From: Flectonema sp. DT1601
Lineage: Eukaryota
Reading direction: 5' to 3'
Assembly: GCA_964019425.1 (NCBI GenBank)
Contig: OZ025783.1
Coordinates: 1,736,001 to 1,760,736, forward strand
DNA: 24,736 bases
Position numbers and translations under genes: made by a program. Below the pieces are notes generated by a model. It searched no databases and was not told where the DNA came from. It saw only the letters and a program-made list of their open reading frames with translations. Positions within the stretch are counted from its first letter, which is position 1; each line of letters opens with the position of its first letter. Below are positions 3,396 through 21,778 of this stretch, piece after piece.

Positions 3396-4350
3396 AAGTC
3401 GATAATCAATGTCACCACACTAGAAGGAAAAATAGATGCCATCACAGATCTGAACCTAGATCTGATAGCTCTACAGGAAACTTCTCTGACGGGCCCACAG
3501 CAACGCCAGATGAAAAAACAGCTCGGTGAGAGAGGATGGGAAGCGACGTTCAGGTTAGAGTGCAAATTACTAACCGATGGGCAAAAGACGTGGACGGCGG
3601 CTGGAGGCGTGGCCATCTTGACGCGCACTGGTACACCGGTGAGAAGGATAAAACACGATCGGCTCGACAACACAGGACGATTCGTACACGCGGGAGTGTC
3701 GTACGGAAATGGCAAGGTACTGCACGTTTTCTCGTTCTACGGAGACGTACGTTCGGCGGTCTACACGGAAGAGTTGATTGCGGGGATGCTCGTGGAAGCA
3801 GCAGCTCTGGGTGATGTTCCCGTATTTATAGCGGGGGACTTCAACGTCGAAACAACGGAATCGCCGGCGCTTCTGTCGGCTTTCGCACACGGACTCTGGA
3901 TAGATGCCGCCGTCTCGATGGGAAACATGACACCGACAAGCGAAGCGGGAAAAGGACTTCGTAGAATCGATGCTATTCTGATGAACCGCGGGGCGGCGAC
4001 AGCAATCTCGAATGACACAACGATTCATGTGCATAAGAGTGAGCTGATCCCGACACACAAGCCGGTCATCATTAGAAAGCTCAACATCCCACGCTACAAC
4101 GAGAAGGCTCCTAGGCTGATAGTACCGAAACAGTTGGATACCTCCGAGACAACGGACCCGAGTGAGGGGAAGGCCGAAAGGCAACTCCACTGGACGCGAG
4201 CTGTAGCGACGGAAGATCCTGACAAGATGCTGGAGGCGCTTGGAGAGATCATCGAAAGATACCTTCTGACGGGAAAGCTGGAGATAAGTAACCCAGCCAA
4301 GTACAAGGGATGCGGGAAGAAGCGTGAGCCTGTGATGTGGACGAACGCGC
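3396..4350 (+). pseudogene. Apurinic/apyrimidinic-like (EEP) endonuclease domain of the non-LTR element, truncated
   Basis: Open frame from 3396 (same frame as ORF 3510) shows NVTTL, DLIALQET, GGVAIL, AGDFN, TPT, RRIDAIL and PTHKPV, the ordered motifs of LINE APE endonucleases. The frame then runs into the array. Confidence 0.85.
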
Positions 4351-5111
4351 AAACCCGCAAACCCGCAAACCCGCAAACCCGCAAACCCGCAAACCCGCAA
4401 ACCCGCAAACCCGCAAACCCGCAAACCCGCAAACCCGCAAACCCGCAAACCCGCAAACCCGCAAACCCGCAAACCCGCAAACCCGCAAACCCGCAAACCC
4501 GCAAACCCGCAAACCCGCAAACCCGCAAACCCGCAAACCCGCAAACCCGCAAACCCGCAAACCCGCAAACCCGCAAACCCGCAAACCCGCAAACCCGCAA
4601 ACCCGCAAAACCCGCAAACCCGCAAACCCGCAAACCCGCAAACCCGCAAACCCGCAAACCCGCAAACCCGCAAACCCGCAAACCCGCAAACCCGCAAACC
4701 CGCAAACCCGCAAACCCGCAAACCCGCAAACCCCGCAAACCCCGCAAACCCCGCAAACCCGCAAACCCGCAAACCCGCAAACCCGCAAACCCGCAAACCC
4801 GCAAACCCGCAAACCCGCAAACCCGCAAACCCGCAAACCCGCAAACCCGCAAACCCGCAAACCCGCAAACCCGCAAACCCGCAAACCCGCAAACCCGCAA
4901 ACCCGCAAACCCGCAAACCCGCAAACCCGCAAACCCGCAAACCCGCAAACCCGCAAACCCGCAAACCCGCAAACCCGCAAACCCGCAAACCCGCAAACCC
5001 GCAAACCCGCAAACCCGCAAACCCGCAAACCCGCAAACCCGCAAACCCGCAAACCCGCAAACCCGCAAACCCGCAAACCCGCAAACCCGCAAACCCGCAA
5101 ACCCGCAAACC
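4348..5111 (+). repeat. (AAACCCGC)n tandem array 1, about 95 units
   Basis: Direct reading; one AAAA variant near 4607-4610 and three consecutive AAACCCCGC 9-mers near 4728-4754. Confidence 0.98.
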
Positions 5112-5298
5112 TAACTACAGCGGGGAACCGGAACTTCGAAGTACAGCCGTCAGCATCATTTTCTCGCCATCGTTTGGCGCATCGATACATCCTATCAGAA
5201 TATATTTCATTTTATTTAGAGCTGTTTAACTCATGTTTAACTTTCCTTTTCTTTCAGCCGACGGGTTCGACCTATTAAACACTTAAACAAAAAGAAAA
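5112..5298 (+). repeat. Split direct repeat A1 of element 1
   Basis: Matches 9498-9684; ends immediately before the ATG at 5299. Confidence 0.95.
5241..5257 (+). promoter_or_regulatory. Putative (trans-)splice acceptor upstream of gag in element 1
   Basis: CTTTCCTTTTCTTTCAG ends 41 nt before the ATG. Element 2 has an equivalent tract ending in AG at 14830-14831, 43 nt before its ATG. Confidence 0.5.
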
Positions 5299-6531
5299 AT
5301 GGGTGATACTTATGACTTCGAATTTCCTAACTCATTAGTTACGCTATGGGGAAATACCGGTGAGGAACTGCTACCGAGAAGACACATAAATATGCCAGAT
5401 GTATTGGGTCGGATCCCATGGGCTGATTGGACAAGTGAAGCAGGCAAAATGATGATGATAATGGTGCTTGCAAGGTGCCTTGGGTGTGATAGAGAAGTAA
5501 TTCAAGGTATTTCACCGAGAAAGATTGCAATATTAATTGACGCGCTGCGAGGTCGGAATAATTTAATTGTTGATAGCATCGCCGAAGCTGTACAGAACGG
5601 GACACTAGCAAGCCTTTCTGGGATGCCTCAAGATCCGTTTAGAAAAGTTGAAGCGATTGTAACGACAGTTGCAAATAGACAAAGCCAGCAAGACGAGAAT
5701 CTCACAGGACTGTATCGTAGTACCGCTCAAGAATTTGCGAAGCATGAAGGAGCGATCCGTGCAGTAAGTAGCGAAGCAGCAAATGCCACGGCCGCCGCGA
5801 CAACAGCTGTTAAAAGTACCAATGATAGACAAGATTCGCTCGAGTCACGAACGGATGCTTTCGCAACAGATGTACTGAATAGGCTGAACAGGCAGTCAAA
5901 GCTTATTGAGGAGCAGCAGGAAATGATCTCTAAGCAAGATAAACAAATTGCAAACTTGATGCGGGCGTCGTACAGATACGTCCACCCAATGAGCGCGCAA
6001 CCGGCGCCTCGCACGACTGCACCTGAACAGCCGGAGCCAAGGGCTCGGTATGAAGAACCGACTTCCGCTGAAGAAACAAGAATTCACAATCCAGTCTCGC
6101 ATACTGTCCGTTCCGTTGCGGAAGACCCTGATAGGTGGATGGAGTACGCAGATGCCAGTAACTTCCAACTGACGGAATTAATTCGAGAGTTGCGAACATG
6201 GGTTCCTAGCAAGAAAGGGGATCTGCAAGATGGGATGGAGGCGGTGATCGGTGCGATCGAAGTCATCTTGCATCCGGAACGGGACGCTGAAGACGCTGTG
6301 CTTGCCCTTGCCGACAGCTTGCAGGTATTAAGGTGTAAGGCAAGGGATGGATGGAAGGCGGCTGAAGCTTTTAAAGGTGAACTCTGGAGGGAACAGAATG
6401 TTGCCCCACGTTATGCGAAAGCATGGCGGGCGTCTAGCACAGCTAAGGTGAAGTCAAACTACGCTGCGCGGAAAGAAGTCTCTAGAGGTTCAAAAAACGA
6501 AGCTTCAAAGGGCGGCAGGTCCCATCAATGA
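5299..6531 (+). CDS. Gag-like ORF1 of YR element 1 (410 aa)
   Basis: First ORF after A1, with a central coiled-coil-like stretch and basic C-terminus. N-terminal FEFPNSLVTLW resembles FHFPEQLMGVW of element 2. The gag call is positional; no CCHC knuckle seen. Confidence 0.75.
   Translation: MGDTYDFEFPNSLVTLWGNTGEELLPRRHINMPDVLGRIPWADWTSEAGKMMMIMVLARCLGCDREVIQGISPRKIAILIDALRGRNNLIVDSIAEAVQNGTLASLSGMPQDPFRKVEAIVTTVANRQSQQDENLTGLYRSTAQEFAKHEGAIRAVSSEAANATAAATTAVKSTNDRQDSLESRTDAFATDVLNRLNRQSKLIEEQQEMISKQDKQIANLMRASYRYVHPMSAQPAPRTTAPEQPEPRARYEEPTSAEETRIHNPVSHTVRSVAEDPDRWMEYADASNFQLTELIRELRTWVPSKKGDLQDGMEAVIGAIEVILHPERDAEDAVLALADSLQVLRCKARDGWKAAEAFKGELWREQNVAPRYAKAWRASSTAKVKSNYAARKEVSRGSKNEASKGGRSHQ
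6492..6498 (+). promoter_or_regulatory. Putative -1 ribosomal frameshift heptamer A_AAA_AAC
   Basis: X_XXY_YYZ in gag phase (TCA AAA AAC). The -1 frame is closed by TAG at 6483 and then open through to 9236. Confidence 0.7.
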
Positions 6532-9236
6532 AAAGAACGCAAGTGGTTGGGGACGGGCGCACCAGCCACGCGAAAGTTAAAATGGCGCCGAAATTACCAG
6601 AAAAGTCCATTGTCCGGGTTGCAACCGACTTTTCCTACTACCCAAGAGACCCAACCGGAGCTGCCTATTCTGACGAGGGAAATTTTAAACCATCTTGGGA
6701 AGAAAGACCGAACTCGCTCTGCACATACAGAGGACGGCGTCAGCGCGGAAGACGCTTCGAAGAAGCTGGCCGACGTGGTCGGGAAGATGTGGGCAGCGAG
6801 TACATCGGCGAAGGGACGAAACCTCTGGGCAAGACTCTTATCGTGGGCGGAAGTGAACAGCTTGCCAGTAAACGCGGAAACCGCTGTCTTATTCGTCCTT
6901 GCCACGAGGGTGAAACCACAAGGGCTACTTCAGTATGCAAAGTCCCTATCAGCAATCATGAAGTGTCTGGGAATGGACAATCGACAGCTACTAACTCTTG
7001 CCACCGCGCTACGAGCAGACGGCGCAGCTATTCCGACAAAGCAAGCACGGCCAATTACAAGGGAGGCTCTCATGGCCTGGGCGGAGTCATCATCGGACGA
7101 ACTATGGCTGGCAACAATGATCTGCTGGAAGACAGCCTCAAGATGGGGCGAGGTTCAGGCACTCACGTCGGAGCAATTCATTCGAGTGGAGAGGGAGGAA
7201 GTGATCATCGACTGGCTCAGCACGCCGAAGCTTCGATCAGCAAATCCATTCGTCCCGTCACGTTGGACTGTGATACGGGGGAGCATGACGGGAGAGATCT
7301 GGTTGCTTTTAAAGGACAAGATTCCATTCGGGGCACTCACAAACAGAACAACAGAAATGTTGGATCGGATGTGGGGAAGGGATCCGAACATGAAGGGATT
7401 TACAGCACACTCGATAAAGCGCGGCGCAGCAACAGTACTTTACGAAAACCTTGCAAAGGGAGCGGACTTACCGGAGCACATTATCTCTCGGACCCTGAAG
7501 CATGCGGAGAAGGAGACAGGGATATCATCAACATCGCTGAGGTACGGGGGTGCGCCAGCCGACATGGCAGTTGCTCTACAGACTTGGAAAGCCACCCAGC
7601 TCTTGTAAAACATGCACCGCATAGCATCTCGAGAAGGGGCCAGCGGACGAGGCTACCTGTCACAGCGGAAGAGAAGGCATCACCGCTTCATGTTTCTTCT
7701 ATAAAACTAATGAATGTTGACGGGCTTCGAGGGAGGCTGAACGACTCGGCAAGGGTGCGGTTTGATAGTGTCTGGGATATGGTATTCCCAAGGCAAACAC
7801 CACCTTCGCGAAGCAGCACACACTCGAAACACTCAACTCTCCAGCCTAGCCATGCTGACGAACTGGTTAGTCGTTCTATCGCACGCCATGCTGAAGCAGG
7901 GGGGGTAATGCAAAATGTGCCGTTCACTGTTGTTGAGGAGAAGGCTGAGGGCTTACGCCAGCGATTCATACTCTGGACAAAGGGACTGAACGACTGGGGC
8001 GAGGGTACTGGGTACCAAGCCGCCGTTCCACTGAAGCACATCTCAGCTTATCTTGGTGCTGTCAAGCAGGAGTGCGCCACAACTCGTGACTTCAGAACAG
8101 GATTCTTTGCGATTGAAATTCCAACATATGCAAGACATCTCTTCAGGTTCCAAGATAGCTCTGGAAGATGGTTCGAGATGCAACGACTACCGATGGGACA
8201 TATTGGCGCCCCGGAACTAATGCACACGCTCGCCGCATCCGCTGCAGGACATCCCGACTACGTTAGAAGTGACATTGCCGTGCACTCCGTTGGTATTGAC
8301 ATCTTTATTGACAATATAAGGTACACAGGGGAGCGGAAGCATATTCTCGATGCGACGACAGTGCTTGATGAGACTGCTTCGGGTATGTCTATTACATGGA
8401 AGGCTTCCGACTCACATACTGCTGCGACAACCTACACGTTCCTCGGGGCGGACTTTAATCATGAGCTTCGTACGGTAAGGGCTTCTGAGAAAATTCGACG
8501 CAAGATAAGTGGTGTGAATCTTTCCAACTGCACAGCTTCACAGCTCGAGTCACTCGGAGGAAGACTTGTTCACGCAAGCGCAATTGCAGGCGTTCCGATG
8601 GGTCAGTTCTGGTATGCAGTGAAGTTCCTTCGAAGGCTTGTCAACGGTCTCAATAGGGGGACCCGCCGTCCAGAAGCGAATGTTAACATCCCGCCGTCAG
8701 TTACCGCACAACTCTCTGCATGGTGCACTGCGGCTCTCAAGCAACAGACGATCTTCCAGCATGATAGCAGAAATTCAGTTACAACGTTCATCGACGCTTC
8801 TATGACGGGATGGGGCGGCGTTATTATTGATGACTCAACAGCTGAAATTATTATCCTCGGCGGCTCCTGGACGCCATCAGAAGCACGCCTCCACATCAAC
8901 GTTCTCGAATCTCTTGCATTATCTAAGACGCTTTCTCAGCTTCCCGTAAGATATAAGGGTGGCACCCTATCACTCTGGATCGATAACACTTCTGTTGTTG
9001 GTGCACTTCGAAAGAAACTCTGTGCTAGGTCAGCAGACTTAAACAAGAATGTCGTTCTTTCTTCTATAATATTCAAGAACCTCCAGCTCGATGTTAACAT
9101 CGGATGGGTCGCGTCAGCTAACAATCCAGCTGACATCCCATCACGCCTCCCAGAACACAAAATCTCATCGGCATCAACACTGCATACTGTCGAACTTGCG
9201 CTGCGGAGGTTTATTACAAGCGACGGGGTGGAGTGA
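6528..9236 (+). CDS. Reverse transcriptase-RNase H of element 1, with N-terminal extension overlapping the entire YR ORF
   Basis: RT motifs RQRFI, RDFRTGFF, RLPMG, FIDN, FLG. DIRS-type RNase H motifs FIDAS..GWG, HINVLE, IDNT, NPADIPSR. Confidence 0.92.
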   Translation: MKRTQVVGDGRTSHAKVKMAPKLPEKSIVRVATDFSYYPRDPTGAAYSDEGNFKPSWEERPNSLCTYRGRRQRGRRFEEAGRRGREDVGSEYIGEGTKPLGKTLIVGGSEQLASKRGNRCLIRPCHEGETTRATSVCKVPISNHEVSGNGQSTATNSCHRATSRRRSYSDKASTANYKGGSHGLGGVIIGRTMAGNNDLLEDSLKMGRGSGTHVGAIHSSGEGGSDHRLAQHAEASISKSIRPVTLDCDTGEHDGRDLVAFKGQDSIRGTHKQNNRNVGSDVGKGSEHEGIYSTLDKARRSNSTLRKPCKGSGLTGAHYLSDPEACGEGDRDIINIAEVRGCASRHGSCSTDLESHPALVKHAPHSISRRGQRTRLPVTAEEKASPLHVSSIKLMNVDGLRGRLNDSARVRFDSVWDMVFPRQTPPSRSSTHSKHSTLQPSHADELVSRSIARHAEAGGVMQNVPFTVVEEKAEGLRQRFILWTKGLNDWGEGTGYQAAVPLKHISAYLGAVKQECATTRDFRTGFFAIEIPTYARHLFRFQDSSGRWFEMQRLPMGHIGAPELMHTLAASAAGHPDYVRSDIAVHSVGIDIFIDNIRYTGERKHILDATTVLDETASGMSITWKASDSHTAATTYTFLGADFNHELRTVRASEKIRRKISGVNLSNCTASQLESLGGRLVHASAIAGVPMGQFWYAVKFLRRLVNGLNRGTRRPEANVNIPPSVTAQLSAWCTAALKQQTIFQHDSRNSVTTFIDASMTGWGGVIIDDSTAEIIILGGSWTPSEARLHINVLESLALSKTLSQLPVRYKGGTLSLWIDNTSVVGALRKKLCARSADLNKNVVLSSIIFKNLQLDVNIGWVASANNPADIPSRLPEHKISSASTLHTVELALRRFITSDGVE
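6547..7608 (+). CDS. Tyrosine recombinase of element 1 (start uncertain)
   Basis: Catalytic-type motifs in order: WKTASRWGEV (R), TPK (K), HSIKRGA, LKH, LRYG (Y). Same frame as gag after TGA 6529-6531. First in-frame ATG is at 6787 (MWA, shared with element 2). Confidence 0.9.
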   Translation: MGTGAPATRKLKWRRNYQKSPLSGLQPTFPTTQETQPELPILTREILNHLGKKDRTRSAHTEDGVSAEDASKKLADVVGKMWAASTSAKGRNLWARLLSWAEVNSLPVNAETAVLFVLATRVKPQGLLQYAKSLSAIMKCLGMDNRQLLTLATALRADGAAIPTKQARPITREALMAWAESSSDELWLATMICWKTASRWGEVQALTSEQFIRVEREEVIIDWLSTPKLRSANPFVPSRWTVIRGSMTGEIWLLLKDKIPFGALTNRTTEMLDRMWGRDPNMKGFTAHSIKRGAATVLYENLAKGADLPEHIISRTLKHAEKETGISSTSLRYGGAPADMAVALQTWKATQLL

Positions 9237-9497
9237 GGCAGGCCAACCGGTGCCGCTACTCGGACTGCTCACTCACATGGCTTTCTGCCACGCTCAGCCG
9301 ATAGCGACCACCACCTGCGGTCTACTTACCTCACTTCGTGAAAAGAATTTGTGAACTCTTATAGTTTAATTTCTCTATCCTTCCTAGTGATAGACGAACT
9401 ACTTAGTTTTATCCATAGTTTCATGTTTTACTATTACATTTCTTCTACTCTTATCTTTCCTTCCTTTCTTTCAGGCTGTACAGGAGTTATGGTTCCC
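9237..9497 (+). repeat. Split direct repeat B1 of element 1
   Basis: Starts directly after the RT stop; matches 9704-9964. Confidence 0.95.
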
Positions 9498-9534
9498 TAA
9501 CTACAGCGGGGAACCGGAACTTCGAAGTACAGCC
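9474..9534. other. B1/A2 junction hairpin, putative recombination site of element 1
   Basis: Nested inverted pairs GGCTGTAC/GTACAGCC, GGAGTT/AACTTC, GGTTCCC/GGGAACC around an 11-nt loop. The element ends map to the CCC. Confidence 0.75.
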
Positions 9535-9684
9535 GTCAGCATCATTTTCTCGCCATCGTTTGGCGCATCGATACATCCTATCAGAATATATTTCATTTTA
9601 TTTAGAGCTGTTTAACTCATGTTTAACTTTCCTTTTCTTTCAGCCGACGGGTTCGACCTATTAAACACTTAAACAAAAAGAAAA
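9498..9684 (+). repeat. Split direct repeat A2 of element 1
   Basis: Copy of 5112-5298. Confidence 0.95.
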
Positions 9685-9703
9685 CCCACCCACCGACCCC
9701 CTC

Positions 9704-9964
9704 GGCAGGCCAACCGGTGCCGCTACTCGGACTGCTCACTCACATGGCTTTCTGCCACGCTCAGCCGATAGCGACCACCACCTGCGGTCTACTTACCTCA
9801 CTTCGTGAAAAGAATTTGTGAACTCTTATAGTTTAATTTCTCTATCCTTCCTAGTGATAGACGAACTACTTAGTTTTATCCATAGTTTCATGTTTTACTA
9901 TTACATTTCTTCTACTCTTATCTTTCCTTCCTTTCTTTCAGGCTGTACAGGAGTTATGGTTCCC
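9704..9964 (+). repeat. Split direct repeat B2 of element 1
   Basis: Copy of 9237-9497, preceded by a 19-bp spacer CCCACCCACCGACCCCCTC. Confidence 0.95.
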
Positions 9965-9992
9965 CGCAAACCCGCAAACCCGCAAACCCGCA
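9963..9992 (+). repeat. (AAACCCGC)n tract 2, 3-4 units
   Basis: Direct reading. Confidence 0.95.
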
Positions 9993-10116
9993 CTAGAGAT
10001 ACCCCTTCCAGGCTCGCGTTGCTCGCACACAACTTTTTTTTTTTAAGCTTTCTGAACAAACATTATTTTTACAACCAAGTCACGTCTGTTTTTATTCCCT
10101 GGCTAGGTACCCGTCC

Positions 10117-10176
10117 AGGGTACAAATTTGAACTTAACTTTACGCTCGCGTTAAGTTAAGTCCAATTTTGTACCCT
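10117..10176. repeat. 60-bp imperfect palindrome
   Basis: AGGGTACAAATTTGAACTTAACTTTACGC-TC-GCGTTAAGTTAAGTCCAATTTTGTACCCT, 26 of 29 positions complementary. Confidence 0.9.
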
Positions 10177-11964
10177 TTCCCTTGCTACTTTCTTCTTACT
10201 AATTCTTCTGGTTGAAAAACACAAAAAATGTGCCTGGGAATTAAACCCTTACCACGGCTACCAAAGAGATTTAAGGTATCCACTCGGCTGTGCAGCCCTC
10301 GGATTTTCTTTTTTTTTTTTATTTATTTATTTGTGTGTTCTTAGCCTCTTTATGGAAATCCTTCCATTTTCCCTTCCCTCCAGTCTTAACGTAGGAGAGT
10401 CTACCAGGTGCCTACCCTGGACGCCCTTCGGGCGTGGGATTTGAACTAATTGCGTGTACGGGCGCGATGGGTTACTGCAGTGGCAGGGGGTCGAACCAGC
10501 GATCACCCAGCCCCAGGGCGAGGGTTATACTACTACCCCTGGGATATCGCAACTTTTTATTATTATTACTTTTCTGCAATTTTTATTTATAAATAAGTTT
10601 TCGAAAAGGTGGGAAGTAACGGGCTGGGAGCTTTTGGCTCCTGCCCCTATTCCTCCCGATGTAAACTTTCTTTTTTTTTTTTTTTTTTTTTTTTTTAACA
10701 GGCCCAAAGGGCGACAATGAAAGATGCTGACCAAGGAATAATATTCAAATGAATTTTCGTTTCAAAGAAACGAACAGGATTAAGGGAGAGGCAGAAAAAA
10801 AAAAAAGAAATAATATGAAGAGGAAATAATCAAACATGAAAAAAAAAAATAAAATAAAAATAAACAAACGTTATATATAAGCAATTTCTTTCGCATTTTT
10901 TCTTTCGCAATTTTCTATTTATTTATTACTTTTCTGTCCCAACGGGACGACAAATGAAAAATGTCCTCCCTTAGCTGAAAATGCACACTGCACCCTGTTT
11001 TATCAAGTCCTTTGTTTTTGTTTTTCTGAAAGATATCTGTAGTTGTTGTTATATTAATATGCTAGCACGAAAACGACGGCTAGGTTTATGATGATTGGAT
11101 ATGTGGCTTAGGATATCTGTTTGTTACATTTGGAAGTATTTTACAACAGGTTTATCGAACCTGTATCTGCAATGTGTGCGACCCTGGGATGGGAATATAG
11201 GAATTTAGTTATATTAATAAGGTTATCGTTCATTATTTCCAATGAAATAGAAATGTGGGAAGAACTATGGGATGGCGGAACGCAGCCCCCCCCCCAACCC
11301 CCCCCAAGGGGGGGGAGCCACTAATAAAGGCCAACCTCCTGAAAAAGAATCAAGAAAAAACAAAAATGCCCTCACCCAAGGTCGAACTGGACGGTTTACA
11401 GCCATTTTGGGTTTTGTAAAGAATGTGTTTATTTGTGTAGGAAAGACCCTTTACCCAAAAAGAAATGAAATCAAAGATTGCTTTTTCACAGCTTGGCACC
11501 TAAAACCCAAAACTCATTAAGAAGGAAAAAATTATTTCAAAAAGAAAATTTTTGCTAACTAAATTGGCAGCCATACACCTAAATTTCAAAACCATACCAC
11601 TTACTAACAAAATTTCTTTCTCATCACTTTTTATATTTTAAGAAAATGGTTAACAGGAATTTATGAAGACTTTTAGATAGATCAACTATGTGTTCCCATC
11701 TTTTCTAGGAGATCTGTAGAAAAAAATAAATCTTTCAGAAAATATTATAAAGGAAAGATTTTTTCTGAAGAATTTTTTTTAACTACCTACTAAATTGGCA
11801 ACCATACACTTAAATTTCAAAACGATACTAAAAAAGAATTTTCATCACATTTTATACTTTAAGAAAATGGTTACCCATCTTTTTTAGACCTGCTCGGGCA
11901 CAAAAATCCAGCATTTTTCCTTAGGCAAAAATAAATCTTACTTACTTCCTACTGAAGAAAATTG

Positions 11965-12364
11965 GCAGCTTAAATTTGTTTGCAGGAAAAAAGTAAGCAG
12001 CTAAAATTTGCTTGCGGGAAGAAAATAAGCAGCCAAAATTTGCTTGCGGGAAGAAATAAGCAGCTAAAGTTTGCCTGCAAGAAAAAAATAAGCAGCTAAA
12101 ATTTGCTTGCGGGAAGAAAATAAGCAGCTAAAATTTGCTTGCGGGAAGAAAATTAGCAGCTAAGAATTTGCTTGCGGGAAGAGAATCAGCAGCTAAAATT
12201 TGCTTGCGGGAAGAAAATTAGCAGCTAAGATTTGCTTGCGGGAAGAGAATCAGCAGCTAAAATCTGCCTGCAAGAAAGAAATAAGCAGCTAAAACTTGCT
12301 TGCGGGAAGAGAATCAGCAGCTAAAATTTGCTTGCAAGAAGAAAATTAGCAGCCAAAATTTGCT
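11965..12364 (+). repeat. 32-bp minisatellite (GCAGCTAAAATTTGCTTGCGGGAAGAAAATAA), about 12-13 units
   Basis: Direct reading, with variant units. Confidence 0.93.
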
Positions 12365-12506
12365 CAGGGGTGCTACATAAGCATTGATTGCAGAAAGGTG
12401 GCAAAAATGAAAGGAATTATTTATTAAAACCCAAATTGTCTAAACCATAACAAAAAGGCAGCTTGGCACCAAAACTCTAAAACCTATTCTCCTCAGCCTT
12501 TTCAAG

Positions 12507-13180
12507 ATCGATAGGCCAAGGGATAACCATAAAAAAGGTGTAACCATGATTTCTTGGGGGTGAGTGGCACAAAAAGCAGTAAAAAAAAAAAAAAAAAAAT
12601 CCCGTGACAAAGGCAAATAACTGCAAAAGCAGCAATTCTCTTTCCGCAAACGCCCCCCTGTGGGTCATCAGGTCATTTGGTAGTGCCAACCTGCAACAGG
12701 TTAACATGCAACACTCTACCTTTCTTCCCGTAATGCGTGACACCATTCAACACTTACGTAGCACTTAGCACCAGGCCTGCTAGCAGGAAGAAACAGAAGC
12801 CTCATTCCCAGTACGGAAGTAGCTAGGCCTGGCCAGCTTACAGTGCTGCGTAAGTTTTGACTGGCAAACAACTGCAAAACTTTTTTCTCCACACAGAAAT
12901 TTGTGAAGACTTTTCAGGGTCGATAGATCGAGAGATAACCATAAAAAAAGATTTACTCATGTTTTTCTGGAGGTGAGTGGCGCAAAAAGTGGTAAAAAAA
13001 AAAAAAAAATTCCGTGACAAAGGCAAATTTCTTTCTGCAAACGCCCGCCGTGGATCACATTTGGTAGCGCCGACTTGCCACAGGTCAATATGCAACGCTA
13101 CTTTTCTTTCCGTAATGCGTGGCACCAGTCAACACTTATGTTGCACTTAGAACCAGACCTTCTTGCGGGAATGCAAAGAA
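12507..13180 (+). repeat. Diverged internal direct duplication (~12507-12800 versus ~12919-13180)
   Basis: Shared blocks GATAACCATAAAAAA, GTGAGTGGC, polyA-CCGTGACAAAGGCAAA, CCGTAATGCGTG, TCAACACTTA. Confidence 0.75.
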
Positions 13181-13286
13181 GAATTAGTGTGTAATTAGGT
13201 GAGGCCTGGCCTGGGTACCTGGCCCAGGACTTGGTGGATTTCCTCAGAACCCAAAATATCCCCAATGCTGACAATTATATAGGAGA

Positions 13287-14555
13287 AACCCGCAAACCCG
13301 CAAACCCGCAAACCCGCAAACCCGCAAACCCGCAAACCCGCAAACCCGCAAACCCGCAAACCCGCAAACCCGCAAACCCGCAAACCCGCAAACCCGCAAA
13401 CCCGCAAACCCGCAAACCCGCAAACCCGCAAACCCGCAAACCCGCAAACCCGCAAACCCGCAAACCCGCAAACCCGCAAACCCGCAAACCCGCAAACCCG
13501 CAAACCCGCAAACCCGCAAACCCGCAAACCCGCAAACCCGCAAACCCGCAAACCCGCAAACCCGCAAACCCGCAAACCCGCAAACCCGCAAACCCGCAAA
13601 CCCGCAAACCCGCAAACCCGCAAACCCGCAAACCCGCAAACCCGCAAACCCGCAAACCCGCAAACCCGCAAACCCGCAAACCCGCAAACCCGCAAACCCG
13701 CAAACCCGCAAACCCGCAAACCCGCAAACCCGCAAACCCGCAAACCCGCAAACCCGCAAACCCGCAAACCCGCAAACCCGCAAACCCGCAAACCCGCAAA
13801 CCCGCAAACCCGCAAACCCGCAAACCCGCAAACCCGCAAACCCGCAAACCCGCAAACCCGCAAACCCGCAAACCCGCAAACCCGCAAACCCGCAAACCCG
13901 CAAACCCGCAAACCCGCAAACCCGCAAACCCGCAAACCCGCAAACCCGCAAACCCGCAAACCCGCAAACCCGCAAACCCGCAAACCCGCAAACCCGCAAA
14001 CCCGCAAACCCGCAAACCCGCAAACCCGCAAACCCGCAAACCCGCAAACCCGCAAACCCGCAAACCCGCAAACCCGCAAACCCGCAAACCCGCAAACCCG
14101 CAAACCCGCAAACCCGCAAACCCGCAAACCCGCAAACCCGCAAACCCGCAAACCCGCAAACCCGCAAACCCGCAAACCCGCAAACCCGCAAACCCGCAAA
14201 CCCGCAAACCCGCAAACCCGCAAACCCGCAAACCCGCAAACCCGCAAACCCGCAAACCCGCAAACCCGCAAACCCGCAAACCCGCAAACCCGCAAACCCG
14301 CAAACCCGCAAACCCGCAAACCCGCAAACCCGCAAACCCGCAAACCCGCAAACCCGCAAACCCGCAAACCCGCAAACCCGCAAACCCGCAAACCCGCAAA
14401 CCCGCAAACCCGCAAACCCGCAAACCCGCAAACCCGCAAACCCGCAAACCCGCAAACCCGCAAACCCGCAAACCCGCAAACCCGCAAACCCGCAAACCCG
14501 CAAACCCGCAAACCCGCAAACCCGCAAACCCGCAAACCCGCAAACCCGCAAACCC
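13287..14555 (+). repeat. (AAACCCGC)n tandem array 3, about 158 units
   Basis: Direct reading; appears homogeneous. Confidence 0.98.
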
Positions 14556-14556
14556 C

Positions 14557-14874
14557 GTTACGTGGGAATCAACCATCCGTCGGCCATGTCTACCTCTCAT
14601 CGTTTATAAATACATTACCGTTTATCCAAAAGAAAGCATAAACAACTCGTACGCAATATAAAATAAAGAATAAGAAAACATCTAGAAAAACAGCACATTT
14701 TGTTTCAGACATAAGACGCAACACGTTCGAGAAAGGAGCATCAGCGATACTTACGATCGTTAATAAACATTCGATACTTACGTTTCGCTACATTTAAAGT
14801 ATCCGCGTTTCATCTTTCATTACTTCTATAGGCTCTCTTTCTCCTTTTCGTACTCCCTTAATAAATAAAGTAAT
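14557..14874 (+). repeat. Split direct repeat A1 of element 2 (318 bp)
   Basis: Matches 19005-19322 with one difference noticed (GGCTCTC versus GGCTTTC); ends immediately before ATG 14875. Confidence 0.95.
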
Positions 14875-16164
14875 ATGAGTTCAGGACAAACACCGATGGA
14901 TATAGATACTACGACGGCTGATAATAAGTTTAATTTCCACTTTCCGGAGCAACTAATGGGAGTATGGCAAGCAGAAACTTCAGAAGGGCCGATGAAAAGA
15001 GGCGTTTACAACATGTCAGATGTACGAAGAAACCTAGGCGAATGGAGTGTTCATGCTGATTCAGGTTTAGTGGATCGGGTTTTAGCAACAGCATTAAAAA
15101 GACCAGTTGAATTGCTGCCGCATGTGCAAAATATTCCGATTCAAAGAAAGCAAGTGGTTCTAGCACATCTTAATAATAAAGATCGCGACTTATTCAGAAG
15201 ACTTCTACAAGAATGCGGCGTAACGCAAGGGCTCCCAGTCACAAGGGAAGAATTTTCGACAGTTTTAAGTGAAGCCTCAATTGCACTTGGGACGACAAAT
15301 CAGAGACAAGGACAACTAGCCTCAGGTCAAGCGGTGCTCGGGCAACAGCAAGCAGTACTGAACGCGAACCAACAGCATCAAGCGCAAGCAACCGCAGCGA
15401 TTGGCAAACAAAGCGCTGAAGCTCACCAAGGGGTGAGCACATTAGCAAATGCAACAGACCAGGCGCTAAGAACGCATGGGGGAAAGCTAGATATGATAAT
15501 AGAGAGTATTAAGGCTACTAATGCCGAACAGAATCATAGAATGAATAGCCAAGATGGAAGGATCGAGCACCTTTTCAACCTTTTGGAGAATCACATGGTT
15601 CAAAGCCAACCGGTACAGCCTATTCAAGACGACGTGCAAGCTTTTAGGCAAGAGCAAGTGGAAGCTACACCTGATCCTGTCATTGCAAAGGAGAAATCTG
15701 CTGGGATATTCATGACTAAAAATATTGTAAATTCAGGTGATGTGTCCTCGTGGGTAGAAATAATTGCAGAAGGGGAGGCAACAAATCTTATCCGTGATCT
15801 CCAGCAGAGATACATGAACGGTATCGGAAGGGTAAAACCAGGTGACAAGATTCTCCATCACTATTTCGAACAGTTGTGCGACTGGATCCGTGTGGCGGAA
15901 CGGGTTACTCTATGGCAAGAAATGGATGAGATGGTGAGCCTTGGGAATCGTATCTTGACGACATTGCGTATGCAGACCGGTTGGATCGACAGAGGCCTTA
16001 AAATGGCCGATATCATTACAGAGCTGGAAGTGGATGACAACGATAGGCTCTCGAAGGCAATGCTTAATGTTGAGAAGAAGAAAAGACCGTTTACATGGAA
16101 GAAGCCGTCAAGACCGCTCTCGGGAAACGGACGTGGGGCTCAAACCCCCAGGAAGCAAAACTGA
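14875..16164 (+). CDS. Gag-like ORF1 of YR element 2 (429 aa)
   Basis: Same position, size and layout as ORF 5299-6531, with Q/A-rich helical centre and basic tail; positional call. Confidence 0.75.
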   Translation: MSSGQTPMDIDTTTADNKFNFHFPEQLMGVWQAETSEGPMKRGVYNMSDVRRNLGEWSVHADSGLVDRVLATALKRPVELLPHVQNIPIQRKQVVLAHLNNKDRDLFRRLLQECGVTQGLPVTREEFSTVLSEASIALGTTNQRQGQLASGQAVLGQQQAVLNANQQHQAQATAAIGKQSAEAHQGVSTLANATDQALRTHGGKLDMIIESIKATNAEQNHRMNSQDGRIEHLFNLLENHMVQSQPVQPIQDDVQAFRQEQVEATPDPVIAKEKSAGIFMTKNIVNSGDVSSWVEIIAEGEATNLIRDLQQRYMNGIGRVKPGDKILHHYFEQLCDWIRVAERVTLWQEMDEMVSLGNRILTTLRMQTGWIDRGLKMADIITELEVDDNDRLSKAMLNVEKKKRPFTWKKPSRPLSGNGRGAQTPRKQN

Positions 16165-18902
16165 ATGCCAACAGCAGGTGGGGGCGCCTGGGCCCAGCCA
16201 GGCGTTACCCCGTACAACAAACTGGGAAAACAAATTGGAGCAACGCATCACGGAGACTTAATAACAAGAAATGGTGTGATGGCGGAATCAGTTCTAAGAA
16301 TCTTGAAGAGGCAGCCCACAAAGGTAACACATCCAGAAGATCCGGTCTCAGTCAACAGGGCACTAGGAAAGCTGGACAACGTAGTGAAAGGGATGTGGGC
16401 ACCGTCAACGCTAGAACAGAGAAAACGATTATGGTCGCGGTTCATGAAATGGGCGATCGAGCGGAACCTGACGAACAATGCGGACACAGCGGTTCTGTTT
16501 ACAGTTGCAACAGGGGCAAAGCCTCAGGGCCTTCTGAATTATGCGAAGGGTCTCTCGGCAATAATGAAAAAGATAGGAAGGGACAATCAGCCTCTCAGAA
16601 GCCTAGCAGCAGCTCTAAGGGCGGATGGTGCAGCGATTCCGGAGAGCCAAGCAACACCTATCAAAAAGGAAGTACTGATGCAGTGGGCGCTGGAACAAAA
16701 GCCCGACCTCAAAGCGACAGCGATCATAGCATGGAAGACAATGTCCCGATGGGGGGAAGTGGCAAAGTTATCGTCAGTGCAATTCATAAACCTAGATCCA
16801 CTGCAAGTTATAATAGATTGGGGGCAAACACCAAAGGGAAAGAAGAGAAACCCTTACACAACGTCAAGATTCGTTGTGATCAGTGGCGACCAAGTCCAAG
16901 AAATCAACAGACTTATAAGGAAGCTCTCGCCGTTCGAAACCCTTTGCAGCACCGACACGGCGAGGGTCGGGGTCTTGTGGAAGCGGGACCCAGCTATGAA
17001 GGGCTACAGCGGCCACAGTGTGAAGAGAGGTGCGATCCAACACATATTCAATTTCAACGCGGAGAACCCGAGGAGGGCCATCCCAACGTATCTCATCAGC
17101 AGACTGGCGAAGCACGAGACGTCAAACGAACAAGTCTCAGAAACAACGCTGAGGTACGCAGGGTCCGACAAGAGCATCGCGGTATCTCTACAAACCCAGC
17201 GGGTAACAAATCACCTATGAGTGCAACGATGGTTAGGCGGGTGATGCAAAACTTCACACGAAAGTCGAAGATCACTAGAATACCGACGACGGAGGAGGAG
17301 CGATCGAGTCCACTTCACGTTCACCCTGTTAAGCCGCTGGAGATTCAGAAGGTGGAGAAGATGATGACAAAAGAAACCCTCAAAAGATTTAAAGAAGTCT
17401 GCAACTTAACATTTAACCCAAGGAAAGGCAAGATTAGCTACAGAAAGGGAAACAAGAGGTCAGAATTACAGACTGAGCATGCGAACAAACTTGTAGAGGC
17501 AGGTATCGCTACCCAGGCAGGCGGCCCTGGAGAACTCGAATCGATCCCATTTACTGTATTAGAAGAGCGGCAAGGAGCAAACAGGCAAAGGTTTATATTA
17601 TGGACGAGGGAGGCAAACCAACAGGCTAGGAGCTTAGGCTATGATCCGAAAGTTCCACTTGGGCACATTTCATGTTATCTTGATCGGACGGAGAAGGAGG
17701 TCGCATCCCAATGGGACTTAAGAACAGGCTTTTACCAAGTACCGATCCCTCAGGCATCGAGAAGATTCTTCAGGTTTCAAGATAGTGCACATAATTGGTT
17801 TGAACTAACGAGGCTGCCAATGGGACACGTAGCAGCCCCTGAGATCATGCACACTTTGACTGCTACAGTGGCAGGCGATCCAACATATGCTAAGCCTGAG
17901 TTTACTTACAAAGGTGTCGTAACTGACATATGGATAGATAATATTAGAATATCTGGTGATCTTGATAAGGTCGAGGCAGCTACTGATGGTGTTAACAAAA
18001 TAGCAGCTGACTGTAATGTGACATGGAAAGCAGCTGAAACTATCCGGGCTGCTACAGACTATGACTTTTTGGGTGTTCATTTTAATCATCTTGACCATAC
18101 GGTATCGGTAGCGAAGAAGCTACGCAACAAGATCCAGGACTCAGATCTTACTAATCCTACAGCAGGGGGTGTTGAAAGCTTAGCAGGGAGGCTTCTGCAT
18201 GCTTCTGCAATTACGAGGGTTCACCCAGGTAACTTCTGGTATGCGTTAAAGTTCTTTCGAAGAATAACAAATTCACTCAATCGGGGAGTTTGCGACGTTA
18301 ACGATTACATTAGCATTCCGATCTCGGTCAGGAAACAGATAGAGCAGTGGGTAGGTGAGGTATCACAAATTCGAGAGATCAAGTCCTTCTCTGATGACGG
18401 CTCTATTATGATGTTTGTTGACGCTTCCAACACCGGATGGGGTGCAGTTATTATTTCTAAACAAGCGGAGATGAAGATTCTGGGGCAACGCTGGACTACG
18501 ATAGAGGGCGAGAAGCACATTAATATTCTTGAGGCTAAGGCGCTGCATCTCTCGCTGCGGACAGTTGAAGAAGCATCTCACATCGATATCTACGCTGATA
18601 ATACTACAGTTGCCTTCTCAACCAAAAAGGGGATGTCCTCACGCTCTTACGATCTAAACAGGGAGGTGATAGGATCTCTCAATCACTTACAAAGGATAGG
18701 TTGCGCATACACAATCTCATGGGTGTCAACAAAATGCAATCCTGCAGACTATCCTTCACGGAGCACTCCAACTAATCTTAACCAGCCAAAGCTACTTGCT
18801 GATGCAAAACTTGCGCTGGGGCGATTCTTCAACTTGCGCGGTGGTGGTGGTAGCCGGGTCGTGGCCAAGCGCCATTACTCAGTAACCACCCCTACGCATT
18901 AG
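16095..18902 (+). CDS. Reverse transcriptase-RNase H of element 2, overlapping the entire YR ORF
   Basis: RQRFILW, WDLRTGFYQ, RLPMGH, WIDN, FLG; RNase H FVDASNTGWG, HINILE, ADNT, NPADYPSR. Confidence 0.92.
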   Translation: MEEAVKTALGKRTWGSNPQEAKLNANSRWGRLGPARRYPVQQTGKTNWSNASRRLNNKKWCDGGISSKNLEEAAHKGNTSRRSGLSQQGTRKAGQRSERDVGTVNARTEKTIMVAVHEMGDRAEPDEQCGHSGSVYSCNRGKASGPSELCEGSLGNNEKDRKGQSASQKPSSSSKGGWCSDSGEPSNTYQKGSTDAVGAGTKARPQSDSDHSMEDNVPMGGSGKVIVSAIHKPRSTASYNRLGANTKGKEEKPLHNVKIRCDQWRPSPRNQQTYKEALAVRNPLQHRHGEGRGLVEAGPSYEGLQRPQCEERCDPTHIQFQRGEPEEGHPNVSHQQTGEARDVKRTSLRNNAEVRRVRQEHRGISTNPAGNKSPMSATMVRRVMQNFTRKSKITRIPTTEEERSSPLHVHPVKPLEIQKVEKMMTKETLKRFKEVCNLTFNPRKGKISYRKGNKRSELQTEHANKLVEAGIATQAGGPGELESIPFTVLEERQGANRQRFILWTREANQQARSLGYDPKVPLGHISCYLDRTEKEVASQWDLRTGFYQVPIPQASRRFFRFQDSAHNWFELTRLPMGHVAAPEIMHTLTATVAGDPTYAKPEFTYKGVVTDIWIDNIRISGDLDKVEAATDGVNKIAADCNVTWKAAETIRAATDYDFLGVHFNHLDHTVSVAKKLRNKIQDSDLTNPTAGGVESLAGRLLHASAITRVHPGNFWYALKFFRRITNSLNRGVCDVNDYISIPISVRKQIEQWVGEVSQIREIKSFSDDGSIMMFVDASNTGWGAVIISKQAEMKILGQRWTTIEGEKHINILEAKALHLSLRTVEEASHIDIYADNTTVAFSTKKGMSSRSYDLNREVIGSLNHLQRIGCAYTISWVSTKCNPADYPSRSTPTNLNQPKLLADAKLALGRFFNLRGGGGSRVVAKRHYSVTTPTH
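16122..16128 (+). promoter_or_regulatory. Putative -1 ribosomal frameshift heptamer G_GGA_AAC
   Basis: X_XXY_YYZ in gag phase (TCG GGA AAC), inside the open RT frame, followed 6 nt later by GGGG-CTCAAA-CCCC. Confidence 0.72.
16165..17220 (+). CDS. Tyrosine recombinase of element 2
   Basis: WKTMSRWGEV, TPK, HSVKRGA, AKH, LRYA. Collinear with the element 1 YR (KPQGLL.YAK.LSAIMK, ALRADGAAIP). Confidence 0.92.
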   Translation: MPTAGGGAWAQPGVTPYNKLGKQIGATHHGDLITRNGVMAESVLRILKRQPTKVTHPEDPVSVNRALGKLDNVVKGMWAPSTLEQRKRLWSRFMKWAIERNLTNNADTAVLFTVATGAKPQGLLNYAKGLSAIMKKIGRDNQPLRSLAAALRADGAAIPESQATPIKKEVLMQWALEQKPDLKATAIIAWKTMSRWGEVAKLSSVQFINLDPLQVIIDWGQTPKGKKRNPYTTSRFVVISGDQVQEINRLIRKLSPFETLCSTDTARVGVLWKRDPAMKGYSGHSVKRGAIQHIFNFNAENPRRAIPTYLISRLAKHETSNEQVSETTLRYAGSDKSIAVSLQTQRVTNHL

Positions 18903-18974
18903 CATATCGTGTAATTATCTTTACATTAGTTCATTCATACAAATTACAATACCTTGTTCTATAGTTTCAAATAA

Positions 18975-19037
18975 ATATGGCAGACTGATAAGGGTGATTC
19001 CCCCGTTACGTGGGAATCAACCATCCGTCGGCCATGT
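18975..19037. other. B1/A2 junction hairpin, putative recombination site of element 2
   Basis: ATATGGC/GCCATGT, GAC/GTC, GAT/ATC, GG/CC, TGATTCCC/GGGAATCA around a 9-nt loop. Confidence 0.75.
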
Positions 19038-19322
19038 CTACCTCTCATCGTTTATAAATACATTACCGTTTATCCAAAAGAAAGCATAAACAACTCGTAC
19101 GCAATATAAAATAAAGAATAAGAAAACATCTAGAAAAACAGCACATTTTGTTTCAGACATAAGACGCAACACGTTCGAGAAAGGAGCATCAGCGATACTT
19201 ACGATCGTTAATAAACATTCGATACTTACGTTTCGCTACATTTAAAGTATCCGCGTTTCATCTTTCATTACTTCTATAGGCTTTCTTTCTCCTTTTCGTA
19301 CTCCCTTAATAAATAAAGTAAT
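19005..19322 (+). repeat. Split direct repeat A2 of element 2
   Basis: Copy of 14557-14874. Confidence 0.95.
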
Positions 19323-19342
19323 CCCACCCACCCTTCCCACCA

Positions 19343-19465
19343 GCAAACCCGCAAACCCGCAAACCCGCAAACCCGCAAACCCGCAAACCCGCAAACCCGC
19401 AAACCCGCAAACCCGCAAACCCGCAAACCCGCAAACCCGCAAACCCGCAAACCCGCAAACCCGCA
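19343..19465 (+). repeat. (AAACCCGC)n tract 4, about 15 units
   Basis: Direct reading. Confidence 0.97.
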
Positions 19466-19668
19466 CTAGAGATACCCCTTCCAGGCTCGCGTTGCTCGCA
19501 CACAACTTTTTTTTTTTAAGCTTTCTGAACAAACATTATTTTTACAACCAAGTCACGTCTGTTTTTATTCCCTGGCTAATCGCTCGCGTTAAGTTAAGTC
19601 CAATTTTGTACCCTTTTCCTTGCTACTTTCTTCTTACTAATTTTTCTGGTTGAAAAACACAAAAAATG

Positions 19669-19737
19669 TGCCTGGGAATTGAACCCTTGCCATGGCTACC
19701 GAAGAGATTTAAGGTATCCACTCGGCTGTGCAGCCCT
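19669..19737 (-). other. Degenerate tRNA-like / Pol III promoter relic (homologue at ~10231-10299)
   Basis: Minus strand CAGCCGAGTGG (A-box-like), GGGTTCAATTCCC (B-box-like), then a T6 run; no complete cloverleaf. Confidence 0.35.
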
Positions 19738-21366
19738 GGGATTTTCTTTTTTTTTTTTATTTATTTATTTGTGTGTTCTTAGCCTCTTTATGGAAATCCT
19801 TCCATTTTCCCTTCCCCCCAGTCTTAACGTAGGAGAGTCTACCAGGTGCTTACCCTTCGGGCGCGGGATTTGAACTAATTGCGTGTACGGGCGCGATGGG
19901 TTATTGCAGTGGCAGGGGGTCGAACCAGCGATCACCCAGCCCCAGGGCGAAGGTTATACCACTACCCCTGGGATATCGCAACTTTTTATTATTATTACTT
20001 TTCTGCAATTTTTATTTATAAATAAGTTTTCGAAAAGGTGGGAAGTAACGGACTGGGAGCTTTTGGCTCCTGCCCTATTCCCGATGTAAACTTTCTTTTT
20101 TTTTTTTTTTTTTTTTTTTAACAGGCCCAAAGGGCGACAATGAAAGATGCTGACCAAGGAATAATATTCAAATGAATTTTCGTTTCAAAGAAACGAACAG
20201 GATTAAGAGAGAGGTAGAGAAAAAAAAAAAAATAATATGAAGAGGAAATAATCAAACATGAAAAAAAAAAATGAAAAAAAAATAAATAAACGTTATATAT
20301 AAGCAATTTCTTTTTTTTTTCGCAATTTTTTATTTATTTATTACTTTTCTGTCCCAACGGGACGACAAATGAAAAATGTCCTCCCTTAGCTGAAAATGCA
20401 CACTGCACCCTGTTTTATCATGTCCTTTGTTTTTGTTTTTCTGAAAGATATCTGTAGTTGTTGTTATATTAATATGCTAGCACGAAAACGGCGGCTAGGT
20501 TTATGATGATTGGATATGTGGCTTAGGTTATCTGTTTGTTACATTTGGAAGTATTTTACAACAGGTTTATCGAACCTGTATCTGCAATGTGTGCGACCCT
20601 GGGATGGGAATATAGGAATTTAGTTATATTAATAAGGTTATTGTTCATTATTTCCAATAAAATAGAAATGTGGGAAGAACTATGGGATGGCGGAACGCAG
20701 CCCCCCCCCCCAACCCCCCCCAAGGGGGGGGAGCCACTAATAAAGGCCAACCTCCTGAAAAAGAATCAAGAAAAAACAAAAATGCCCTCGCCCAGGGTCG
20801 AACTGGACGGTTTACAGCCATTTTGGGTTTTGTAAAGAATGGTTAGTTCTGAAACTATTTGTGTAGGAAAGACCCTTTACCCAAAAAGAAATGAAATCAA
20901 AGATTGCTTTTTCACAGCTTGGCACCTAAAATCCAAAACTCATTAAGAAGGAAAAAATTATTTCAAAAAGAAAATTTTTGCTAACTAAATTGGCAGCCAT
21001 ACACCAAATTTCAAAACCACTTACTAACAGAATTTCTTTCTCATCACTTTTTATATTTTAAGAAAATGGTTAACAGGAATTTATGAAGACTTTTGGATAG
21101 ATCAACTATGTGTTCCCATCTTTTTTAGGAGATCTGTAGAAAAAAATAAATCTTTCAGAAAATATTATAAAGGAAAGATTTTTTCTGAAGAATTCTTTTT
21201 TAACTACCTACTAAATTGGCAACCATACACTTAAATTTCAAAACCATCACATTTTATACTTTAAGAAAATGGTTACCCATCTTTTTTAGACCTGCTCAGG
21301 CACAAAAATCCAGCATTTTTCCTTAGGCAAAAATAAGTCTTACTTACTTCCTACTGAAGGAAATTG

Positions 21367-21778
21367 GCAGCTTAAATTTGTTTGCAGGAAAAAAGTAAGC
21401 AGCTAAAATTTGCTTGCGGGAAGAAAATAAGCAGCTGAGATTTGCTTGCGGGAAGAGAATCAGCAGCTAAAATTTGCTTGCGGGAAGAAAATAAGCAGCT
21501 AAAATTTGCTTGCGGGAAGAAAATAAGCAGCTAAAATTTGCTTGCGGGAAGAAAATAAGCAGCTGAGATTTGCTTGCGGGAAGAAAATAAGCAGCCAAAA
21601 TTTGCTTGCGGGAAGAAAATAAGCAGCTAAAATTTGCTTGCGGGAAGAAAATAAGCAGCTAAAATTTGCTTGCGGGAAGAAAATAAGCAGCTGAGATTTG
21701 CTTGCGGGAAGAAAATTAGCAGCTAAAATTTGCTTGCGGGAAGAAAATTAGCAGCTAAAATTTGCTTGCGGGAAGAAA
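21367..21778 (+). repeat. 32-bp minisatellite in Helitron-like copy 2, about 13 units
   Basis: Same unit as 11965-12364, more homogeneous. Confidence 0.93.

Follow-up and report, generated by a model that had tools for sequence, protein, structure and literature searches.

The canonical site of a tyrosine recombinase (YR) consists of two inverted arms around a spacer of 6–8 bp (PMC4792948). Integron attC and CTX phage sites undergo recombination in the form of folded single-stranded DNA, and attC also does so from cruciforms (PMC4792948, PMC5027507, PMC3458562); in integrons the insertion is finished by host replication or repair (PMC3458562). As of 2016, IntI and XerCD were described as the sole known YRs acting on single-stranded DNA (PMC5027507). 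Among retrotransposons that encode a YR, DIRS-1 has single-stranded cDNA intermediates of antisense polarity; its authors propose a double-stranded circle as the substrate and stated in 2020 that the specificity of DIRS YRs was uninvestigated (PMC7192593). The closest described elements to those reported below are the VIPERs, which belong to the DIRS order and reside in kinetoplastids (PMC6681497).

The window, the whole 24,736-nt stretch of DNA analyzed, contains two diverged VIPER-like YR retrotransposons, E1 (5110–9964) and E2 (14553 to ~19343), whose features are collected in Table 1. As in VIPER, each element carries a gag-like ORF, a YR and an RT/RNase H ORF overlapping the YR, together with split direct repeats in the order A1...B1-A2-B2 (the full set in E1; E2 is without B2) and no target duplication (PMC6681497). 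The resemblance extends to a YR of ~340–360 aa with W.TASRW and HS.K.G motifs (a likeness judged by eye), a C-rich spacer after A2 and a TTC at the B/A junction. In layout, ORF sizes and motifs, E1 and E2 fit a VIPER-like assignment, made here on sequence grounds. They are 46.5% identical over 312 aligned YR residues and 42% in the RT core, and comparing their repeats by blastn gives no match between the two elements. The gag-like ORF of E1 has no family match. The named homologues of the proteins encoded by E1 and E2 are hypothetical proteins of Diplonema papillatum, 37–52% identical, and we therefore infer a diplonemid-like host; no named VIPER proteins occur among the homologue matches looked up (10 of the 150 in one list). 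This host, and the placement of both copies at one register of an octamer satellite, set E1 and E2 apart from VIPER. The elements themselves are thus of an already known kind, and the part that we did not find in print is the fold at their B/A junction. The accessible portion of PMC6681497 does not mention such a fold for VIPER, and none was found in those of PMC12278014, PMC3266345, PMC8547959, PMC5814959, PMC9210276, PMC4157794 and PMC10161547. The literature searched likewise held no junction hairpin or single-stranded integration for VIPER, TATE, Ngaro or PAT; older work may bear on novelty (Goodwin and Poulter 2004; Poulter and Goodwin 2005; Lorenzi 2006; Poulter and Butler 2015).

Table 1 Features of E1, E2 and their target arrays in the window.
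Feature	Positions	Strand	Remarks
Target array (CCCGCAAA)n left of E1	4354..5109	+	resumes at 9963–9991
E1 repeat A1	5110..5298	+	189 nt, identical to A2; ends at gag ATG
E1 gag-like ORF	5299..6531	+	410 aa; named by position only
E1 RT/RNase H ORF	6486..9236	+	916 aa stop to stop; overlaps YR
E1 YR ORF	6532..7608	+	358 aa stop to stop
E1 repeat B1	9237..9497	+	261 nt, identical to B2; begins past the RT/RNase H stop
E1 junction hairpin	9474..9534	+	5' arm is the final 24 nt of B1; loop 9498–9508; 3' arm is A2 nt 14–39
E1 crossover interval	9496..9497	+	CC common to B end, A start and target; directly past TTC 9493–9495
E1 repeat A2	9496..9684	+	
E1 C-rich spacer, A2 to B2	9685..9703	+	starts CCCACCCACC
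E1 repeat B2	9704..9964	+	right end of E1
Target array (CCCGCAAA)n left of E2	13289..14552	+	resumes at 19348–19464
E2 repeat A1	14553..14874	+	322 nt, 1 mismatch to A2; ends at gag ATG
E2 gag-like ORF	14875..16164	+	429 aa; gag name taken from position
E2 RT/RNase H ORF	16074..18902	+	942 aa stop to stop
E2 YR ORF	16165..17220	+	351 aa
E2 B1	18903..19003	+	assigned by analogy with E1; second copy absent from the window
E2 junction hairpin	18975..19037	+	loop 19003–19011
E2 crossover interval	19001..19003	+	CCC common with target; directly past TTC 18998–19000; E2 right end missing
E2 repeat A2	19001..19322	+	
E2 C-rich spacer	19323..19343	+	starts CCCACCCACC; followed by the octamer array, without B2

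Several details of the coding and processing layout recur in both elements. Slippery heptamers lie near the end of gag (AAAAAAC at 6492–6498, GGGAAAC at 16122–16128), at which point the RT/RNase H ORF has already opened in frame −1, and a −1 frameshift making gag-pol is likely; similar A-run and G-run sites were seen by eye at the matching place in the VIPERs of T. cruzi and Crithidia. Directly past the gag TGA, and in frame with gag, comes the YR ORF (6529–6534 and 16162–16167). This boundary reads TGA-ATG in E2; in the E1 YR the first Met comes only at about residue 87, suggestive of read-through or reinitiation. C-rich tracts resembling the CCCACCCACC spacer are present in the T. cruzi VIPER, the Crithidia VIPER and the L. 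braziliensis TATE, and a G-rich tract at the RT end offers the spacer a pairing partner (−24.4 and −22.7 kcal/mol, as uncontrolled raw energies); the spacer is a candidate priming or strand-transfer signal. Pyrimidine tracts followed by AG, resembling trans-splice acceptors, occur in both kinds of repeat in E1 and in the A repeats of E2 (5256, 9473, 9642, 9940, 14830 and 19278). Splicing at such acceptors would trim the RNA ends, which would then be restored from the internal B1/A2 copy.

Between the octamer arrays lies a 3-kb unit in two copies of ~94% identity (9992–13287 and 19465–22415) with no notable long ORF. It contains a 32-nt tandem repeat and a palindrome with 29-bp arms (10117–10176), partly missing in the second copy. 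Its minus strand starts with TC and ends with CTAG, resembling a non-autonomous Helitron. The first octamer array interrupts an endonuclease/exonuclease/phosphatase ORF at 3396–4353 (PF03372, E 2.2e-7) that is probably the start of a LINE ORF2. The octamer motif was not found in seven supplement files of PMC10161547. We considered the array as a telomere and rejected this, as its C-rich strand runs toward the right end of the window, which is not the usual telomere orientation. The E1 junction itself matches the common telomere repeat over 7 nt (CCCTAAC, 9495–9501). The match may be chance; elements of the E1 type might also insert in (CCCTAA)n.

Each element was inserted at one and the same register of the octamer satellite. 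In E1 the C runs measure three at the junction, three in the target, two at the left end and four at the right end. Because their sum is conserved (2 + 4 = 3 + 3), the exchange was conservative and fell in a 2-bp CC match, aligning TTC|CC of the element with AAA|CC of the target; with the C count preserved across the crossover, target-site duplication is absent. The left end of E2 retains four of five C, giving the same register with a 3-bp match. Because E2 lacks B2, its B1 and right crossover are deduced rather than read directly, and the known insertions in the window number two, of which E2 is truncated. The crossover register TTC^CC is thus common to both elements with 2–3 bp of target identity, and it falls, as the preliminary description had proposed with ~2 bp of identity, at the loop-proximal end of the left arm of a hairpin. 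Both junctions and the target also share CC-N5-AC. The octamer array has no inverted arms and does not fold.

The B/A junctions of E1 and E2 fold into bulged hairpins of ~60 nt. As DNA, the E1 hairpin reaches −15.8 kcal/mol (z −5.6) and the E2 hairpin −17.4 kcal/mol (z −4.9); as RNA, the corresponding values are −33.2 (z −6.9) and −28.4 kcal/mol (z −4.1). No shuffled sequence (0/200) attains the junction fold energies, and in each element the junction is, on both strands, the top-ranked fold among all overlapping 62-nt windows (1/2397 in E1 and 1/2365 in E2). Placed in 815-nt and 566-nt contexts, the inner and outer helices keep pair probabilities of 0.87–1.0. By way of background, the window has 305 other TTC sites, of which 11 form a stem of at least 6 bp closing on GAA, none of them below −11.5 kcal/mol. 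Rfam returns six weak matches in the window, all below the gathering score and none at either junction. Among the contigs of two sequencing runs, none bridges the E1 junction and none lies on E2. A second, weaker hairpin forms at the RT stop and B1 start of each element (9230–9290, −13.9 kcal/mol; 18837–18900, −11.4 kcal/mol).

The stem of E1 is, exactly as previously described, built of three segments; these measure 8, 6 and 8 bp around an 11-nt loop. The three-segment description applies only loosely to E2, with helices of 7/3/3/2/8 bp and a 9-nt loop. Closure on TTCCC/GGGAA with a loop of 9–11 nt also stands for the loops, and understates the shared inner stem, which comprises 8 bp (TGRTTCCC paired with GGGAAYCR). 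Within it, E1 and E2 differ by one two-sided change (G-C versus A-T) and one one-sided change (T.G versus T-A), and a purine-purine mismatch adjoins the inner 8 bp in both. The outer arms have no sequence in common, in agreement with the earlier claim. On the plus strand the two stems contain three G.T and no A.C wobble pairs; the E2 junction reaches the same energy on either DNA strand (−17.4 and −17.4 kcal/mol). Because B supplies the 5' arm and A the 3' arm, the hairpin is split by integration, and the fold is lost at the ends of the inserted elements (−6.4, −1.3 and −3.7 kcal/mol). The predicted hairpin at both junctions (z of −4 to −7, rank 1 per element) and its loss on integration confirm the preliminary description.

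Complete VIPER copies in supplement MOESM10 of PMC6681497 and TATE copies in MOESM11 were compared by eye rather than folded with a tool. Five VIPER families are given, of which four are assessable, B. saltans having been left out for an N gap before A2. In all four, TTC directly precedes the start of A and is followed by TA or TG, and the end of B pairs with an arm of A that starts with GAA, with stems of at least 7 bp in three of the four (PMC6681497, by eye). The T. cruzi hairpin has 7+4+8 bp, purine-only internal loops and one T.G, with 16 nt from TTC to GAA. It is identical in the six of six copies shown, and the first copy differs at ~16/330 flanking versus 0/~62 hairpin positions (p about 0.05; by eye). 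In Crithidia, copy 1 pairs over 7 bp and then 8+9 bp beyond a ~64-nt side arm on the 3' side (TTC to GAA, 16 nt), copy 3 over 8+8 bp with a 16-nt bulge (27 nt), and copy 2 weakly over 5 bp (25 nt), all by eye. T.G wobbles appear by eye in three of the four VIPERs. Of four TATE copies, those of L. braziliensis, C. mellificae and T. theileri were compared: in L. braziliensis TATE, TTC falls at the overlap of A and B, with 5+4 bp and a spacing of 32 nt, and by eye no TTC/GAA motif is seen at the apparent A start of the C. mellificae and T. theileri copies, in which B is undefined.

Taken by eye for the relatives, the TTC-to-GAA distance is 15 and 13 nt at the window junctions, 16–27 nt in VIPERs and 32 nt in TATE. 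In E1, E2 and every relative with a stem, the 5' arm reaches the crossover, while the position of the 3' arm is free to shift, with bulges that measure up to ~64 nt. This layout recurs in trypanosomatid VIPER sequence that cannot be aligned with E1 or E2, again as judged by eye. Scans for related loci yielded one metagenome locus (L001) and one genome locus (L002), with none in three viral scans and none by tblastn against phage and plasmid; genome G001 holds four element fragments. None of L001, L002 and the G001 fragments carries both A copies, so no junction is definable in them. The 389-nt tail of L001 has a TTC/GAA stem of only 4 bp, which for that reason is uninformative. G001 is filed as bacterial, and its eukaryote-type YR retrotransposon fragments (L002–L006) are probably contamination.

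Conserved residues of the YR in a 22-sequence alignment are R204, K233, H293, R297, H324 and Y338 (E1 numbering), and the family comprises 1231 cluster representatives at E up to 0.001. A PDB search by sequence gave weak integrase matches only. In a predicted structure of mean pLDDT 80.3, Cre is the best match (Foldseek E 8.5e-7; Z 14.7, rmsd 3.9, 269 aligned), and IntI aligns with Z 12.1, rmsd 3.8 and 240 aligned residues. The spacing from R to H is 84–97 residues in most family members, which would leave little room for the I2 insert of integron integrases. From H to Y it is mostly 13–14 residues. This exceeds the spacing in Cre or XerD and resembles Flp, which cleaves in trans; such a spacing would suit a reaction at a half-site. 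The T. cruzi-type YR motif was found in none of the 225 proteins searched.

Each YR monomer sits on duplex lying 5' of the phosphate that it cuts, and exchange involves the strand 3' of that cut. Only the plus-strand fold places a duplex 5' of the crossover, and the plus (RNA-sense) strand would therefore be the substrate; the G.T wobbles lie on this same strand. The published description of attC agrees with binding of the duplex 5' of the cut (PMC5027507). A plus-strand substrate would in turn have to be second-strand DNA or a cruciform arm and not antisense cDNA. We considered the minus strand (first-strand cDNA) and rejected it on YR polarity, as its cut would fall at the other edge of the loop. 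Since the cut is followed only by a loop, with no second box, a half-site reaction has to be assumed. We give about even chances to the reading that the B/A hairpin is the attachment site of the element, recognized by the YR as a folded plus-strand DNA half-site. More tentatively, and rather short of even in our judgment, YR retrotransposons (VIPER, perhaps all) may integrate via folded single-stranded DNA through a single exchange at a one-armed hairpin half-site, on the plus strand in elements with split repeats; this would be a eukaryotic ssDNA-to-dsDNA pathway whose donor site differs from attC and CTX attP.

Under the half-site reading, the YR would recognize the folded plus strand, either as a free single strand or as one arm of a cruciform, bind the stem as a single arm and cut within TTC^C^C^. 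The freed 5' end, leading into the flexible loop, would pair through CC with double-stranded target cut at AAA^CC. A single strand exchange would then link A to the target on the left and B to the target on the right, leaving replication or repair by the host to complete the insertion. As the stem would supply the binding duplex by its shape and TTC/GAA, the outer arms and the loop length would be free to vary.

Measured against this scheme, the earlier idea that a folded single-stranded cDNA integrates survives in part. Its core gains from a fold that is tied to the crossover and kept in unrelated VIPER sequence (by eye), and from a variable spacing that disfavors a double-stranded core. Its choice of strand fails, as YR polarity points to the plus strand and the single-stranded cDNA of DIRS-1 is antisense. 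The junction is also not a site of the attC or CTX type, for it has one duplex arm and only a loop beyond the cut. The argument that low homology is a sign of single-stranded DNA falls as well: IntDOT, the integrase of CTnDOT, requires just 2 bp of homology beside the first cut, as here, but acts on double-stranded sites, makes a homology-independent second exchange and needs no fold (PMC2034462).

That same precedent favors an alternative that we consider quite possible, if on balance doubtful, in which the hairpin is a plus-strand replication signal, in RNA or nascent DNA, and the YR acts, through 2 bp of homology, on a double-stranded junction. By pairing with A, the end of B could prime or redirect reverse transcription, tether the ends for circle closure, or mask internal trans-splicing or polyadenylation signals. 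It is the RNA strand that carries the fold, which is strong when computed as RNA. DIRS-1 has no known primer, and a 3' hairpin primer has been suggested for it (PMC7192593). The best pyrimidine-tract AGs of E1 are at 9473 and 9940 in B and at 5256 and 9642 in A, and 9473 adjoins the stem only in the B1/A2 context; by eye, the pyrimidine-tract AG of A lies inside the outer stem of Crithidia copy 1 (PMC6681497). The E2 hairpin, however, has no strong acceptor beneath it, and masking of signals leaves unexplained why the 5' arm always ends 0–2 bp past the crossover and why TTC is paired to GAA. The CC-N5-AC shared by the junctions and the target could mark the edges of an 8–9 bp overlap, a weak lead because E1 and E2 are related. 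A heteroduplex from two exchanges predicts crossovers at either edge, whereas all three junctions here are at the left edge of the loop, a weak count from two insertions. As the plus strand is also the RNA strand, strand bias cannot separate a DNA from an RNA function. The two roles, DNA half-site and RNA or replication signal, are not exclusive and may be possible together.

It is improbable, in our view, that the inverted repeats serve as the paired binding arms of a usual YR core site in double-stranded DNA, with the hairpin a by-product of the palindrome. YR sites normally do have inverted arms around a spacer (PMC4792948), the left arm has the crossover at its inner edge, and the predicted YR structure is Cre-like. 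A common cut register would nonetheless impose overlaps of 11–15 bp in E1 and 9–13 bp in E2 (9–15 bp for the two) and 16–27 nt in the trypanosomatid VIPERs, versus the fixed 6–8 bp of canonical sites. The outer segments are moreover offset by bulges, and the target has no such arms; its array does not fold. That the hairpin is there by chance is unlikely, and chance or a neutral relic of an old inverted duplication is altogether hard to credit, for although hairpins near −16 kcal/mol also occur at 15391 (in E2) and 10111 (in the spacer unit), the fold ranks first at both junctions, keeps a common register and recurs in unalignable trypanosomatid families. What remains after these exclusions is that the folded strand has a function.

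The half-site reading could also explain why just one of the two identical B/A junctions of a circle is used. The site offers a 60-nt substrate, an 8-nt target and a predicted strand and cut, making the question testable with a single protein and oligonucleotides. For genome engineering, an integrase that targets a satellite and uses a donor defined by shape is of possible interest.

Compared with known systems, the TATE elements of Leishmania share the repeat layout and the use of a single register in a simple repeat, GGG^TTA (= TAA^CCC) as against AAA^CCC here. They insert in telomeric hexamers rather than in an octamer array, and their YRs are longer, with alignments of 468–982 aa (982 in L. 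braziliensis) against 351–358 aa in E1 and E2. DIRS1-like elements carry inverted terminal repeats and an ICR in place of split direct repeats, and have a similarly short homology, 3 bp at the circle junction. Their partly complementary ends adjoin an unpaired extension of 9–75 nt, which would give a stem and then a loop at the crossover, and by the polarity argument their folded strand would be the minus strand. CTX phage uses the host XerC/D, two binding arms and a dif target, whereas E1 and E2 encode their own recombinase and present one arm. Like the proposed site, attP(+) of CTX integrates as folded plus-strand single-stranded DNA (PMC3458562). With attC and IntI, the junction hairpin shares an imperfect stem recognized by shape, a conserved crossover triplet, a cut in the 5' arm and a strand preference (PMC4792948, PMC5027507), although the triplet is AAC in attC and TTC here. 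In attC the cut falls where the basal R box has its inner edge, beyond which lie an unpaired spacer, the L box and extrahelical bases (PMC5027507); the E1 and E2 hairpins would be cut at the loop end, followed by at most 2 bp and a loop of 9–11 nt with no second box, and the short R-to-H spacing of their YR gives no sign of the I2 insert of IntI. If the half-site reading is true, recombination of single-stranded DNA by tyrosine recombinases reaches eukaryotes, beyond IntI and XerCD.
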